This document shows positions 1 through 9,589 of a stretch of DNA of 64,000 bases, piece by piece. This DNA comes from Trichoplax sp. H2 (Eukaryota), in assembly GCA_003344405.1 (NCBI GenBank), contig NOWV01000016.1, forward strand, positions 620,001 to 684,000, written 5' to 3'. Numbering within the stretch: the first letter of the stretch is position 1; each line of letters begins with the position of its first letter. The translations under genes and the position numbers were made by a program. The notes below the pieces were generated by a model, which did not search any database, was not told the origin of the DNA, and was given only the letters and a program-made list of their open reading frames with translations.

Positions 1-402
1 ACCATACAGTCCTACAGTCCAGTACTGTCCTGAGTACTGTACAGGTCTTGCCAGTACAGTACTGTAGTTGGACGGACGATCCAAGTGGGTACGTACCAGT
101 GTGTCACTGTACACTGGTGTCAACGTCCAGATACCATCAACTCTTGCAATTCCTTGATTTGCGAATGCGCACAGTAAAACTATGCACGCTACAGTACGCA
201 GTACTGTACTCAGTCCGTGACAATACTGTGCTTTATTACTGCATTCCCATGGGGAAAAAGACTAGAGTCCAGTTAAGACCAGTGTCACTCCCTTCTCCGA
301 CTGTACATTACAGTACTGTACAGTACTATACAGTACTGTACTGTACTGTACTGTACTGTAGATAATTCCGCTGTAGCAGGCATGACTAAAGTACAGTACT
401 GT
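1..402. repeat. CAGTA/TACTG pentamer-rich low-complexity tract
   Basis: Dense TACAGTAC/ACTGTAC motifs, including a (CTGTA)n run at ~335-360. Confidence 0.85.
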
Positions 403-637
403 AAAATCATCAAATCAAATTACGTAGTCTTTTGGGGGATAGACTTGCCCTACAGGATGCGCAGCTTCTGGTCTAAGCAGATCGTCACTGGACAACTGCG
501 AGAACCAAAGCAGGCATGACTAAAGTACTGTAACATCGTCAAATCAAATTACGTAGTCTTTTGGGGGGATAGACTTGCCCTACAGGATGCGCAGCTTCTG
601 GTCTAAGCAGATCGTCACTGGACAACTGCGAGAACCA
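375..637. repeat. Tandem duplication, 2 x ~130 bp
   Basis: AGCAGGCATGACTAAAGTAC...GGACAACTGCGAGAACCA at 375-507 and 509-637, near-identical. Confidence 0.95.
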
Positions 638-1966
638 TCAGCACCAACTACAAGGAGTTCGTGGTTGTAAATTGTCACCCAGTGATCGATCGGAGTGAAA
701 CGTCACTCACGACTCCGAGTGACGTCCAGTATAATACGATGGAGGGCGTGTACGAATACGACTCCAATTTGCGCTTTCGTCATGTCCGTTATCCGCTACC
801 ACAGAATCCAATTTGCCTTTCTAACCATCGAATAGTATCTACCTGCTTGTTGTCATCGCGATGAGAAGAACAGTTGTATGATCAAACAGGTTTAATCGTT
901 GAACTAGAATGGACAGAACTTGCGGCACCAGGAGACACTTTGCTGCCAGCAATGAGTAGTACTAAGTAGTACCGTGTGTATTGACTCGATAGTATCGTGA
1001 GAGTAGATTGATCGAATCATGGTAGTATATCACAACTAGACTTGATATTCTCATGGTAATAATAATGCACAAAAATAGGATAGTGGTTGATACATCTACA
1101 CTGGACAACACTGTGCAAATCGCCGACATGTATAATATCATCAGTATGGGCTAGCCCTAACCTTTGGTAATGGAGTAGAACAGCCTAGGTCAAAACTGCA
1201 TTGTCAAAAGAATACTGCCAATTATTTTAATTATCCAACTTATCGTCATATCATAGATATCGATCAACTATAGAATCATCAATACGTAAATGAGCTGAAA
1301 TGACTTGTTCAGAAAAGATTCCCATCAGCCGTATAGATCACGGTAGAGCATATTTAAACACAATTTAGCACAGAAAGATTGATACTGATATTTTCATTGC
1401 ATTGTCGTTAGAAAATGGACTACGTTATAAAGTTAAGAGAGCTTTTTTTATTATTGAAACGCTATCAATGGGTGATTAATAACTAACACACCATCATTTT
1501 CTCCTACATTTCCTATGTGTACAGCATAACATAATATACAGTAGACGTAAACAATCGTGTTAAGTAGATAACAGATATTCTAGAATAGCATCATTAAATT
1601 TCGGTCAAATTGCAATTTACATACAGTATATTCTACGGAGAATCACATAGCATCGCACACCAACATGAATCCTGTTCAGTTTTTCTATTATACTGTACGA
1701 GTATTATTGATTCCAGGCGATTTCAACTTAAACTAGAAAGAATGAATCTTTGTAGTCGACATTAACAATATTACGCTGTTTCATGAATGAATAGGCTTGG
1801 CAAATACAGTGCAGGACATGTTTTTTTACATACATTGCAAAAGCCTGTTCATTTAGATACACTGTTACAGTATAAAATGTAAGCATATTATAAAATAATA
1901 ACATACGACTATTACATTACATATTATGACAATTTTTTCTCCCCACTTTCAATCAATGTTAAATTG

Positions 1967-4900
1967 TTATCTTTCTTTTGGCTTTATATCCAATGATAAT
2001 TGATATAACGACTATAGATTTTTAAGATATCAAAGAATATCCATCATAAAAATGAAGCTACAAAACATAGTGTCAATACTTTCGTACAAGTAGTATCTCA
2101 AAGTTGGAATTTTATAGACACTTTACCTCATCAGTTAAATGATTAACACTTCCACGTAAGAAATCGGCAATAGTAACATCGACATTGATATCGTATGGAC
2201 TACATTAATGCAAATAATTGTCAAAACGTTAGGACAATATGATAATAACATCATGCAATAAAATGAATATATTAAGATATGTAAGAATACGTTATTAATA
2301 CCAATTTTGAAAATTTTCAATATCTTTGACAATTGTGTACAATTTCCACCTTCCTTGAAAATTGATGCTACCATCTGGCAATTTATCTGGATTTCCAAGT
2401 ATAGTGAATGTTACATCCTGGAGTATAAGACCCCTATATTGATAATGGGAAATAATTGCAAATAATTGAATGTTTCAGCACCAAAAAGTAAATAAACTAA
2501 AATCTCCATTGAATAGTGAAGATTATTAAAAATAAATATAAAATGAAACTTACAGATACGGTATGCAAGGAGGCTTAGCCTCGGCCAATGCCGTTCGGTA
2601 AATTTTAAAAGACATGGTATTATCAATAAGACTAGATAATTCTTCAATGGCCTAAAAATTACACATTTTAACATAAGCTCTTAACTAAATCCGTCATAAT
2701 AATTAAGCTATAGCTATCAATTTTTTGGTAACATTAATTTCGTACGGTTGTAAATTGTTTCTGCCAATCGAGACGCCGTACAGAAGCACAATCAAGGGCT
2801 GACAAAATTGCCAAGTACGAATTGAAGTTATTCATGCGGCGCAAACACTAGAAAATGATAGCATACCAAATCCAAATGTTGGAGTTTGCGTAAAGTAATC
2901 TACAACTTGGTTAATAAGGAAATTTATAAACCCTTCCAACCTTCAATATTTTAATACATGTGCCCATTATTTTCTCACGATCTTGCTGTCTCTCTTCTAA
3001 CAAAATACATGTACGAATCCTGCAAATATCCAAGATAAAAGTTTACACAGGAATTCCGTATCAAATGATCGATAAAACCTTTTCATTACTCTTCATAAAC
3101 AACCGGCCATATATGGACTTACCAGTAGGAAATATTATTAAAATGCTCAGTGAAGGCTGTTAAGTTTGGATTTAATTTCTCAGACTGTTTCTTACCCCAT
3201 CTAAGTATTTCCGGAATCTACAAAGTTTTATCACCATAACTTAATGTTATTGATCATAATTTATTTCACACCTGTACGAACCTCAATCTTCTTGAATTGT
3301 TGAAAATCCATTAAAGTAATCTGCTCGGCCAGTTCTTGAGCCGTAAAATCAAATATTTTATACGACCTAATAAAAGAGTAGCATTAGCATCCATATCATT
3401 TGTAAAGCGTAAGAGTAGTAACAATGACAGCTCATTAGGCTACCTAGATTGAACGTTTTCTGCGCACGGTGGAGGACGTAAAGGCTTATTTCTCTTCTTT
3501 CTCATTCGATTACACTATACATATTGAATGGTACGTACTTAACCTCTGTAGAATAATTGAAACTCCATGCTAAACTAAAATTATATTTTACTTGTTCTAG
3601 TTTTACAAGAGCTATATACTACCTCTTGCACTAAAGCTTCCCGTAGCATAACAGTTTCCTTTAATAGACCAGTTTCCAAAAAATTACATTCTAACTCGGC
3701 GAGTCGAAAGACTGCACCGCTATTTAATTCACCACTAATACAATATAACAAATCAACTAGTTAGCTAAACAATATTACGCAACAAATATTTTAGAAAGAA
3801 ACATTTATAATACATGATATAGAGCATAAGTGTAAAATCCTTACCAGCCTGTATGCAAAATTCGCAAAATTAAAGCAAGAGTCTGCTGGCTGACACTGTA
3901 TACTCTCATTTGATCAAACTTTTTAAATGTACGCAAAATTAAGAAAAATAAAATCATAATACTCGTATAATAGGACAAGCTAGCGTATATTCTATAATAA
4001 GATTGAAGATAAAGCAAACACGCTAGGATATCTTAGAAGAAGCTTTTCAATGATTTCAGACGGCGTTATAAAAGTCCTGTAGGTCATGATCAAAGCTTCT
4101 AGGAAGGCTTTATCTAAAAGAATTAATAACATTACTTGTCTAGCAATATATACAAGCTAGAGTCAATATTTAAATTATATATCTATATATGATATTAGTA
4201 TCACAATTGCCAACTAAACTTACTGGTCTTATATGTGTTGGTAGCATAAACAATAAGTGCATTAACTGATCCTCCTTTAATATTGCAGGGACAAGAAGTC
4301 TAGATATCGATATATTTAAGACAATCAATTTAAGTAACAATTTAGGAATTCGCAAGAGGTAAAGAGAATATATAATAACCTACCTTATCTAAGGTTGCAA
4401 AATGAAGATATGAAGATACATCGAATGAAATCAATACATCGTCATCCGATACAACTGAAGCCGGCTTTGCTTTCCTTATATCTTTCAAGCTGTAACGATT
4501 TCATAGTATCCTATAAATAATCTTTACCCACTATAACATTCTATAATAATAAATGTTAATTACTAAAAAATTAATTAATTTTATCTATCTTACACATTAT
4601 CAAAAACTGTCGATATTCGATCGGTATTTTCAATTTCATCTTCCTCTGCAATTGTGCCATCAGCAGATACTTTAGCAAGCACTGAAGGTCGCTGTGTAAG
4701 TAGAAGAGGAATTACCTTGTTTTCTATTCTTAGCATTAAGAAAGTAACAGAGAACATATTGCATTACAAAAGGGACCTTACCTTAGCAGGTAAGGATGCA
4801 CGATCAGGCCTTGATCTATATACCTTTACATAAGAATAATAAAGCAATATTTTATTAACCAAATACATAAATTTTACAATCCCCTACACTTTGTAAATTA

Positions 4901-7900
4901 AAATGCATAGATAGAAACCTTATTTCGACGTAGTGTAGAAGGAGACTTTGTATGCTTTTCCAGTGCTATGGCTACAAGGGAACTATCTTCATCATCACCA
5001 CTTAACGGTGCCTTTGCATCAGCTTCATCATACTCGGTGGCCATGAGTTGAATGTAAGCGGTGACTAAAACAATTTCAAAATAAGCATAGCATTACGCAA
5101 CACATTTCCATCTATTCTTATAATCGTTCAATGTCATGGGAGTATATAGTAACCTGCAATAAAGTTAAGTCTTTTTTGTGCTTACCTGGCTTAGCGTCAA
5201 GTTCGTCATCATTATTAGTTTCCTTATTTTTTTCACTATCATGACTGCCTTCAGTATTTGATGATATCTGATTTCGTTGATTATAAGTTGTATGATCACT
5301 CTTACTACGAAATCTAGCTGGCACAGAATCCGTATTAACTGCGCTCAAATGGCTTGATAAAGGTGCATCAGATTTATCTGAAAATGACGAACTGGAATCG
5401 TCTAGAATTTTTTTATTATTTACCAAACCATCTGAACTGGCATGATTGACGGATTCATTTGATTCTATACGCAATGAAGACTTGTTTAATGGGTCATTAA
5501 CGGATAAATACGAATCATACGATTCTGCCCTAATTTCTCTAGTTACGGGAATATCCAAACTTAACGCCTTCTTAAACCAATTTCTTCGAGACTTGAAGCG
5601 AAACTTTGAAGGAGTAGACTCTTTGGAATTATCGGTAGTTTTAGGCGTAGATTTCTCTGTTAAATTAAAGATAGCGTTCTCCAAAGACTTACAATTTCCA
5701 CTGCTATCAGTCTTTGAGTTATTAAAAGAATTGCTAGAAAAGATGTCATCGACTCCATTGTCCTTTTCTACCGCATGACTGTTTGGACCTTTACCATTTC
5801 GCTAAATTGCCAGAATATTTAGATATTTAATAAAATATACCGTAAGTATGATTAAAGTAATTATTTAAAGTTAATTATTAAATCACTATCAGTAGCATCC
5901 AATACCTTATCCTTCTTTAAAAGCTGCAATCCGTTCCTAATCATAAGATAGTAATTGTTAATACAATATTTGCTAGCATTCATATATTTTCATTCCTCTA
6001 GATTCCTTCAATTAGAAATTTATCTCTTTGATGTGCAATATACATATTATTTGCTTACTTTTTACTCGCCCCGGTTGAAAAAAGTTGCATCACTGAATCT
6101 TTTCTCGCTTTTGTTTCAGCGTATGACACTAATTCCTATAAATTTTAAATTGTCAAGTTACTAATATTGCAAAATTTCATTACAGTAAATTATTTTTTTA
6201 CTAGCAATTTTTGTTACACATGTAAAGTTACTGTAGAGAACATACACCGTGAGGAATCAATGTACCTGAATTCGTGATAAAAATTCTTTAGCTAATGCAT
6301 TGGCTTTTACAGCATCAAATTGGTCCCTGCTTTCATCGACAAGAAGTTTATCAACGTGGCGCATTAAAGCCGCTAATGATAAATATGCCGCACGTTGCTT
6401 GGATGTTAAAATGCTGCTCAATCCACATGTAAGTAAAAATATTTTAATGATCAGTAAGAAAGCAAGCTAATGAATTTAATAAGAAGCTGTTAGCAAACAG
6501 GGATTACGGTCATTTGATGATAAAATTCATCTTTACCTCTCTTTAGCTATTACAGATCCAATGACAATACTTAAAGAATTAATAGTCTCGATAACCGTTG
6601 ATGTTGTCCCGATAGTGAATTCAGGATGTTTCTTCTGTAAGACAGCTGCAATATGAGAAAAAATACAACAATTTACGTTGCTGTTGTCGTTCAAGCAATA
6701 CTAGTTACTAGCCTAGTTAAAACACGTTTTTAGATCCTAGTATTTGATGTCATTTTCAACTCTTGGTTATAATTACTGTAAATTCAGAAGCTGATAACAT
6801 AGGTAACTAGTTTGGAACGTTATAAGTATTAATTGATAAGATAACATTAACTCAGTCTTGAGGCTACAAAATACAATATTCCAAAAGATTTATAAACTTA
6901 CTTTCCATATAACGCAAAGCTACCTTCACATCTTTAACGGCATCCTGTATTTGAACAATTTCCTACGATAACAATTTTTAATATCAATTTTTAGATTTTT
7001 TTAACAATAAATTGTAACGTTGTTCTACAAGTAAAAAAAATTGCAGCAAAACAGTAGTTTAAAGGTAATTCCATTGAGAGTCAAGACAAGGCGAATGAAT
7101 AAGATTTTTTCAACAGAACTGAATTATTAAGAACCTCAATTGTACGGCGTGGCTATTATCTATGAAATATTGGCTATAGCTCAAAGTAAAATACAATGAA
7201 AATATTTATGTCCAACAGAATTAAAATGGGCGTCAAGAAGTGATAAGTCAATTTATTTAAAGATACTCTACAAGAGTGAGTAGAACAATTTTGGAACACC
7301 GCCTTCACGATCATAATTAACGATTTAGCACTATATAATCAAGTATAACAAATTTTTGCCTACTAGCTTTTTATTAATGTTATTTCTTAGAAATGTCGAA
7401 ACAACCTACCATTTTAAATCAGTCTAAATATACAGAATGAACGCTAATAAAGATAGCCTACTTTCAGAGGATCAACACTGGAGCGATCTCCTACTGTTTA
7501 AAATCTCTACTTTTAACTATTAAGAGGCATTCAGGCTAGTACTACTATCCAAGTTGCGATATAATTTTCTACGATTCCCTCCAATATATATATATATATA
7601 TTATAGTCTAGCTTCTGTTAGATTCTAATGATGAAACTCTACACAGGTAAATAACATGTGTGATTTCTTTCTTAACTCTTTGTTCTATTTCTGCTGTTTG
7701 TTTTAGACTAATATGGCACACTAGGAATTGCTCATTAACTTAATTTTGTTATTCTTAGCTCTTTGCTATATATGTCATGTCATTGATATCAGAATATAGA
7801 TGCTGAAATAAAGAGATTTTATACCAAAGTAACAATTCATAAAAATTTCTCTATGCCAAAAATAATGACCGTAATTATGAATGATCACAACAATAAACTG

Positions 7901-9589
7901 CTTTAAAAGACCAAAGTTTCATGAGGCGGTCTTTAATAATTTATAGTGACCATATATGAATTGCTAGGTCATTGCCATTTCGACGGGAAAAATAGTGTAC
8001 GTACTACGAAAATATTGAATTTATCATTACTTCAAGATCAGTTCTTAAAAAATGATAGGTTAATTAATACTACATTAGCACTATAGAGGATCCCGTAGGC
8101 AATTTAATTTTTTTGAATAATTGATGTTTAAGGTGAAATATTCTATCGGCTACATTCGCTATTCTATTTCATTGTATTGTAATTAACGTTGTAGTCTAGA
8201 TGCATCGCTATTCTAAAATGATAGTGATGGTCATTTTTAACTCGAGTAAGAAAAGTAACTATACTTAGCTAGGATCAATAGCAATTACATTAATCATTCC
8301 ATTCAAATCCAAAAGGGTATTATGAAGTTGTTATCCAAAGTAATCAACAATGCCATTAAGATCTATAATCGACCGGCTGCTTATTCATTATCAATGATGA
8401 TATTAGTTCAATTATTCAATAGTCTATTTTACTTCATGGCGCAGCTATGACGAGCAGAATAAGGTAAAACAGTAGTGTTGAAATTTTTTCCTAGGCATTA
8501 TTTATTATTGCCAATTTTACAATAATGATGCTGAAGAATGTCGACAAGTCTTATTTCTAAATTCAGTTAACTTCAATTACGATATACAATTAGCGGTTGG
8601 CTGTATACTGATGTCTGCATTGTACGTGTATGATGATCTAATCGGCAGATGGAGTAAAAGACAGCCTTCGAGGCTTTTACTCGTATGCTAGAAATGTAGG
8701 AGTGTAGGTGTATTATGCGAGAATAACTTAATATGTTATGCGTATATCATCATACCAATTTCTTCTATGCCAAGAAAAATTATGATAATGGATAGTAACT
8801 GATTCCCGGTCAACTTTTACGACTACTTGCTGCTAGAACTAGAATTAGGGGTCTAATATTCTATTGATATAATTCGCAAGCAATTTTCCATTACCTACTT
8901 ATAAAACTAGATGCGAACACAGTAGAGAACGCAGAATAAGTTCATTTCGTAAATTAATTTCATCATTTTAAAGCATTCAAGTTTTTGAAACCCTGTCACT
9001 GCTATGTCAGGAACAGTAGGTAGGGAGTGGAGATAAACAAGGATATTATCGATTTCAGAATAAATTAAGGGATTGTACAGTATACGCGTACAATAGCTTC
9101 ATTGGCTTTACCTAAAGCTATCCAAATCGACTATATTTATAAAACATTGATAAACTAGCTGATCATATTATCCATCGTTAACTTAATTTAACAGCAATGG
9201 CTAACATACAGTATATTAATTAACAGTTCAAAATGAGTTTATGAAGCATGGTCCCAATCGAATAAATCATAAATTAGCATGATATCATAATTGAAATGGC
9301 TATTCAATTTCACGCGGGATAAAATGGATGCACGTTCCATAAGACAGAATATCGATCTACTTCATGCTAGGTGGTTAACATTGAAAAGTATTTCTACAAG
9401 GCTGTATCATTGTCAATGTACACCTACCGTGATCTCGCTAGGCTTGGAGCTATCGAGCGATTTGGCTTCTGATAAAACTTTAGCTTTGCGGCCATTAGGT
9501 GTAGCGTTAACCGATTGATTCTTGGCACTAATATTAAATTGCTTGTGGGAATTGGGCGACCTTAGAAAACTCTTCAATCTCGGCATCAT
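1967..9589 (-). CDS. RAPGEF1: Rap guanine nucleotide exchange factor 1 (C3G)-like, about 24 coding exons; N-terminal domain, REM and CDC25 RasGEF domains
   Basis: Spliced translation starts MMPRLKSFLR (ATG 9589) and includes VKVALRYME, AYLSLAALMRHVDKLL and TAYIQLMATEY (similar to C3G LAYMQLLEDY). REM: IKGGSVNALIVYAT, FLEALIMTYRTFITPSEIIEKLLLR. CDC25: DFTAQELAEQITLMD, IPEILRWGKKQSEKLNPNLTAFTEHFNNISYW, LRRMNNFNSYLAILSALD, PPCIPYLGLILQDVTF. Ends SLYQLSLDIKPKER* (TAA 1969-1967). Exon phases are compatible throughout. ORF 5118-5684 is part of the large central exon (~5186-5801). Confidence 0.92.
3929..4031 (-). other. U12-type (minor spliceosome) AT-AC intron in RAPGEF1
   Basis: Minus-strand donor AG|ATATCCTA, branch-like TTTTCTTAAT about 10 nt before the acceptor TAC|A. 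The phase-2 join restores KLLLR-FKKF; read-through hits a stop codon. Confidence 0.88.

Follow-up and report, generated by a model that had tools for sequence, protein, structure and literature searches.

In Trichoplax sp. H2, an intron lies at one aligned codon of the REM (RasGEF_N) domain in seven of ten RasGEF genes, and by predicted junctions and signals these introns belong to three splicing types; this series is what our analysis adds. The member supported by RNA interrupts a C3G (RAPGEF1) gene. We are strongly confident that it is an ordinary, ancient U12-dependent AT-AC intron, orthologous to a vertebrate RAPGEF1 intron and a surviving copy of a REM intron that was present before the genes duplicated.

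The window, the whole stretch of 64,000 nucleotides that was analysed, contains the following features.

1967 to 9589, minus strand: C3G/RAPGEF1 orthologue, with 16 exons from 4823 to the stop codon at 1969-1967 defined by RNA joints, and predicted 5ʹ exons and start
4032 to 4113, minus strand: upstream exon of 82 nt, running from phase 1 to phase 2 and covering Pfam RasGEF_N positions 24-50
3929 to 4031, minus strand: AT-AC U12-type intron of 103 nt, phase 2, in the REM (RasGEF_N) domain of C3G/RAPGEF1 (sequence and RNA joint)
4023 to 4031, minus strand: U12-type 5ʹ splice site, ATATCCTAG, following the consensus through +7 and deviating at +8/+9 (sequence)
3992 to 3994, minus strand: TAG in frame upon intron retention, preceding the whole catalytic CDC25 domain (frame-0 translation)
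3938 to 3948, minus strand: branch-point region with core TTCTTAAT at 3945-3938 and a putative branch adenosine at 3939, 11 nt upstream of the 3ʹ end
3929 to 3930, minus strand: AC acceptor, with no polypyrimidine tract between branch and acceptor (sequence and RNA joint)
3845 to 3928, minus strand: downstream exon of 84 nt
3919 to 4021, minus strand: GT-AG decoy of the same length as the intron, in frame and shifted by 10 nt, with an alignment score of 104.8 versus 109.4 for the AT-AC pair

Between 4823 and the stop codon, the spliced C3G frame is open for 459 codons, and its exons matched Pfam RasGEF_N (REM) and RasGEF (CDC25). The named matches among the best 120 were RAPGEF1/C3G or hypothetical proteins (58–64% identity), and the sequence identifies the host gene as the C3G/RAPGEF1 orthologue of Trichoplax. 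A partial Trichoplax adhaerens model of 185 aa that lacks the REM domain matches one exon at 100% identity, and a homologue search with the 203-aa Ser/Asn-rich N-terminal exon (5186-5801, minus strand) found none. Downstream of the gene, window positions 1-700 form a higher-GC repeat region in which a block of roughly 120 nt is duplicated and short repeats of the CAGTA type occur.

As originally predicted, the minus strand from 4031 to 3929 reads as a 103-nt intron with a U12-type donor, a branch-like element and an AC acceptor. It is a phase-2 intron, and the Arg codon that it interrupts is shared by the 82-nt and 84-nt exons. To locate the junction, assembled contigs of four of the 22 listed sequencing runs (X1, X4, X5, and X13) were compared; X4, X5, and X13 come from three studies and are RNA-like, X13 alone being recorded as RNA. 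Contigs of all three RNA-like runs skipped 103 letters at a joint placed at 3926/4030, with the same depth as at neighbouring joints. Two letters are ambiguous at this joint, and a cut two places on gives exactly 3929-4031; one of the three equivalent cuts yields AT-AC with the consensus, indicating that AT...AC termini are used. The RNA contigs of 3/3 runs thus join 4032 to 3928, where the original prediction had placed the junction. The remaining 14 C3G joints among those listed were GT-AG, and in the DNA-like run X1 a single unspliced contig spanned 1700-5386 with 0/15 of the listed joints. In the bin 3758-4051, the depth in X5 and X13 equalled the exon share; contigs drop rare forms, and therefore bin depth is uninformative on retention of the C3G intron. 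A retained intron would, by its reading frame, stop translation at 3994-3992, ahead of the catalytic domain.

Alignment to homologues separated the candidate junctions less sharply than RNA. Among 111 open in-frame donor/acceptor pairs, including 13 GT-AG and 19 GC-AG pairs, the AT-AC pair ranked top against five RAPGEF1 homologues (109.4). Originally, no GT-AG alternative that preserves the alignment to C3G had been found; this needs a caveat, since the GT-AG pair 4021-3919 is in frame, equal in length and only 4.6 lower in score. Homology alone is therefore not decisive, and the RNA joint decides: it slides by two letters, not 10, in 3/3 runs, and the decoy joint was absent from the contigs of X4, X5, and X13. 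The decoy donor is also weak and its acceptor purine-rich. The RNA joints refute 4021-3919 as the main splice form, and we see next to no chance that it or another canonical pair is the true junction.

Compared with the RTATCCTT donor consensus, ATATCCT fits from +1 to +7, AG occupies +8/+9 where T is usual, and AG also stands at -2/-1, a feature linked to minor-like introns (PMC11347168). The branch core TTCTTAAT carries 6/8 consensus letters and is TCCTTAAC-like, its putative branch A falls inside the range of about 10–20 nt from the 3ʹ end that is expected of such sites, and its region forms a predicted 10-bp duplex with the U12 snRNA of the same genome. Taken alone the branch feature is weak, as two of the 14 U2 introns of the C3G gene also score 6/8. 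All 14 remaining introns with RNA support in this gene begin with GT and have at most 5/8 donor consensus letters. The donor heptamer by itself is at chance level (14 seen versus 14.4 expected per window), while the combined pattern of donor, branch and AC was seen once versus 0.05 expected (40 resamples). RTATCCT has 21 further matches in the window besides the C3G donor. Unconstrained duplex energies, calculated against U11, U12 and U6atac, failed to tell U12 introns from U2 introns, some of the latter being equal or better.

The genome search returned genes for U11 (99.2 bits), U12 (97.3 bits), U4atac (59.2 bits) and U6atac (104.8 bits), all exceeding the Rfam cut-off. The anticipated minor spliceosome thus appears to be present and probably splices this intron. 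Trichoplax minor snRNAs have been known since 2008–09 (PMC2655684, PMC2396436), and 121 minor introns were counted in T. adhaerens (PMC11347168 supplement). In the U6atac gene (L001:1501-1629, minus strand), GCCGAGA replaces the donor-pairing box AAGGAGA, a CC variant called hard to reconcile with donor pairing (PMC2396436), and the pairing of this variant with U12 donors is poor. No further U6atac carrying the standard box was found in the genome, where one exact and five one-mismatch matches equalled the reversed-control count. Just downstream of the full gene, five 5ʹ-truncated U6atac copies stand in tandem (G000:C503:8305-9231, minus strand), and a similar array is listed for T. adhaerens (PMC11347168 Table S7).

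It is highly improbable that the C3G intron is real and yet spliced by the major spliceosome, either as an AT-AC intron of the U2 type or as a minor-like hybrid. Such introns of the U2 type exist (PMC2831892), and the AG at -2/-1, the non-consensus +8/+9 and the CC-variant U6atac would suit that reading. U2-type AT-AC introns, however, carry G at +5 (PMC2831892), whereas the C3G donor has C at both +5 and +6. Further against it, the spacing of 11 nt between branch motif and intron end recurs in two other AT-AC paralogue introns, and the human orthologue requires both U12 and U6atac, responding to morpholinos against both (PMC11347168 Table S6). The motif, the RNA joint and the orthologue all agree with the U12-type class first proposed, with minor-spliceosome use the probable consequence.

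The RAPGEF1 minor intron has been catalogued in human, with CAG followed by ATATCCTTT, and in mouse, with CCG followed by ATATCCTTC (PMC6717393 supplement). The last exon letters of both donors are compatible with a phase-2 Arg that follows Tyr, the two residues present in vertebrate homologues. The human/mouse intron (human chr9:131589979-131592098; PMC6717393, PMC11347168) thus shares with Trichoplax the gene and an AT-AC U12 donor and, to judge from the flanking letters and the models that read through, also the phase-2 codon; it differs in length (2120 nt in human versus 103 nt) and in donor letters (ATATCCTTT in human versus ATATCCTAG). Across 124 RAPGEF1 homologue models, a redundant set that is mostly fish, the codon was intact in 95 (two of them shifted on inspection), read R-Y-P in 16, was broken in eight and lacked the motif in five. 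R-Y-P-F, found in 14/16 of the R-Y-P models, is the product of reading through a U12 donor; therefore, Trichoplax and vertebrates have the site in common, and it is often mis-modelled. With AT-AC introns in human and mouse and 16/124 models running into a U12-type donor, the comparison of position and class indicates that the C3G intron is conserved in position and, with the human codon deduced as above, orthologous to the catalogued vertebrate intron. In Table S8 of PMC11347168, as available, T. adhaerens has a RAPGEF1 protein orthologue only, the orthologous intron not being recorded. Scanning metagenomes for RAPGEF1 loci yielded 27 pattern matches, none of them a confirmed relative.

We then compared the site across the genome, which has 11 RasGEF loci. 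Ten with a REM exon were counted; the RasGEF gene on C375, for which no REM exon was found in 20 kb, was left out. Seven of the ten have an intron at the aligned codon in phase 2: three U12 AT-AC, one U12 GT-AG and three U2 GT-AG, with three genes lacking it. RNA supports the C3G junction, and the other six junctions are predicted by frame and homology.

C3G: U12 AT-AC, 103 nt, branch A 11 nt from the end
SOS-like (PDB matches SOS1/2): U12 AT-AC, 201 nt, branch A 11 nt from the end
CDC25-like gene on C206: U12 AT-AC, 499 nt, branch A 11 nt from the end
Epac-like (cNMP domain): U12 GT-AG, 232 nt
RasGRP-like (EF-hand): U2 GT-AG, 204 nt
RalGDS-like: U2 GT-AG, 454 nt
RasGEF gene in L016, family not given: U2 GT-AG, 128 nt
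Three REM genes without intron: sequence runs straight through the codon

Two of the intron-less genes appear to be RasGRF-like and PDZ-GEF-like. The C3G, SOS-like and C206 genes share the same 82-nt upstream exon. The C206 gene (L019/L014, G000:C206 about 114900-118400, plus strand), which has no vertebrate family match assigned, is split into two genes at the AT-AC intron by the T. adhaerens annotation, and the H2 model bends round the intron. Together with the R-Y-P read-through models, these breaks bear out the expectation that gene models often fail at U12 introns. In protein P0221, which is related to the C206 gene, the reading frame continues through a short intron, with donor-like and branch-like codons visible. 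Between the REM and CDC25 exons of the L016 gene, positions 3660-3854 (plus strand) gave a weak FERM_M match (E 6e-5).

Read-through at this codon extended to other families. Among 150 cluster representatives matching the REM profile, eight read R-Y-P at the site. Eleven SOS-type matches comprised six R-Y-P, three R-Y-A, one R-Y-V and one spliced; the three R-Y-A matches carry vertebrate SOS exon sequence. As indirect evidence, these read-through models suggest that the SOS donor may be U12 in some animals and U2-like in vertebrates, which accords with the absence of SOS1/2 from the human/mouse minor-intron list. As we read the alignments, again with read-through models, six PDZ-GEF-like matches likewise exit the exon at the corresponding codon. 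Protein P0242, which might be non-animal, has R-Y-P at the site; BLAST and look-alike checks gave it no placement, and it was left out of dating.

A shared position could also arise by independent gains at a favoured AG/AT site. A proto-splice-like context is common to most REM-site junctions, and the single-origin reading draws on animal genomes and on a site alignment. Against this, the same base is used in six of the nine other REM genes at a gene intron density of about one per 90 nt, three genes share the 82-nt exon, and U12 signals occur in four genes, de novo minor-intron gain having little support (PMC10639083). We consider independent gains very unlikely. On sequence grounds, the reading that we favour is a single ancestral minor intron that predates the divergence of the RasGEF families, with each known conversion stage kept.

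In our model, one REM-exon intron was present before the RasGEF families duplicated, and its descendants here would be the four U12 introns, the three U2 introns and the three losses. Subtype switch, conversion and loss would follow the known route from AT-AC through GT-AG to U2 or loss (PMC2831892). For C3G, whose junction is observed, U11 would pair with donor positions +4 to +7, U12 would bind the branch region with the putative A 11 nt from AC, and U4atac, U6atac and U5 would finish excision, restoring the Arg codon of the REM domain. The suggestion that the intron may be ancient thus gains support beyond the original guess, the site being common to paralogous RasGEF genes.

We further think it probable, with less assurance than for the C3G intron itself, that one U12 AT-AC REM intron was there before SOS, C3G, Epac, RasGRP, RalGDS and PDZ-GEF diverged, and so probably before animals; that it is ancestral to the nine human RAPGEF/RASGRP minor introns and to a U2-converted vertebrate SOS intron; and that Trichoplax holds every stage and splices these donors with a U6atac without the standard box. 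From the placozoan series and the human proteins, we presume that the human RAPGEF/RASGRP paralogue introns lie at the same codon. The placozoan Epac-like and RasGRP-like genes likewise have an intron at the C3G site, of U12 GT-AG and U2 GT-AG type, respectively, unlike the AT-AC introns of their human counterparts. Human RAPGEF3/4/5/L1 and RASGRP1-4 have AT-AC minor introns (PMC6717393), and an ATATC donor is listed for each of the nine human RAPGEF/RASGRP entries (PMC6717393 supplement). SOS1/2 are absent from the human/mouse list as available (PMC6717393), whereas the placozoan SOS intron is U12 AT-AC. Drosophila Epac also has an AT-AC intron (PMC2831892).

The class of the C3G intron and its human counterpart are already known, and this intron is largely ordinary. 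Enrichment of the RAPGEF/RASGRP family in minor introns has been noted, in a passage that does not mention a shared position (PMC6865273); PMC13135317 merely lists RAPGEF1 in the part available, and the supplement of PMC10639083 includes both Trichoplax genomes. We found no description of the shared REM site in the available parts of the literature searched, including PMC7367187, PMC11347168 and PMC10639083; subscription papers and online intron databases, outside this scope, may list it. Literature searches on the exon boundaries of human SOS1 and RASGRP2 yielded nothing usable, and PDB searches did not show which Epac or RasGRP residues lie at the junction. The SCN/CACN channel paralogues likewise share U12 introns (PMC2831892), but the RasGEF site has three intron types and absence in one genome, across more deeply split families. 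The route matches the subtype-switch and conversion model of Burge et al. (per PMC2831892).

The C3G intron chiefly corrects annotation, having been missed by a published survey; both public models of the C206 paralogue break at the REM site. Any function beyond splicing, a regulatory one included, would be putative. The paralogue series matters more, as a within-genome set for minor-intron subtype switch, conversion and loss. It suggests that minor-intron enrichment in Ras-pathway GEFs stems from a single ancestral site; if this is true, the "enrichment" in Ras signalling would be inheritance from one site.
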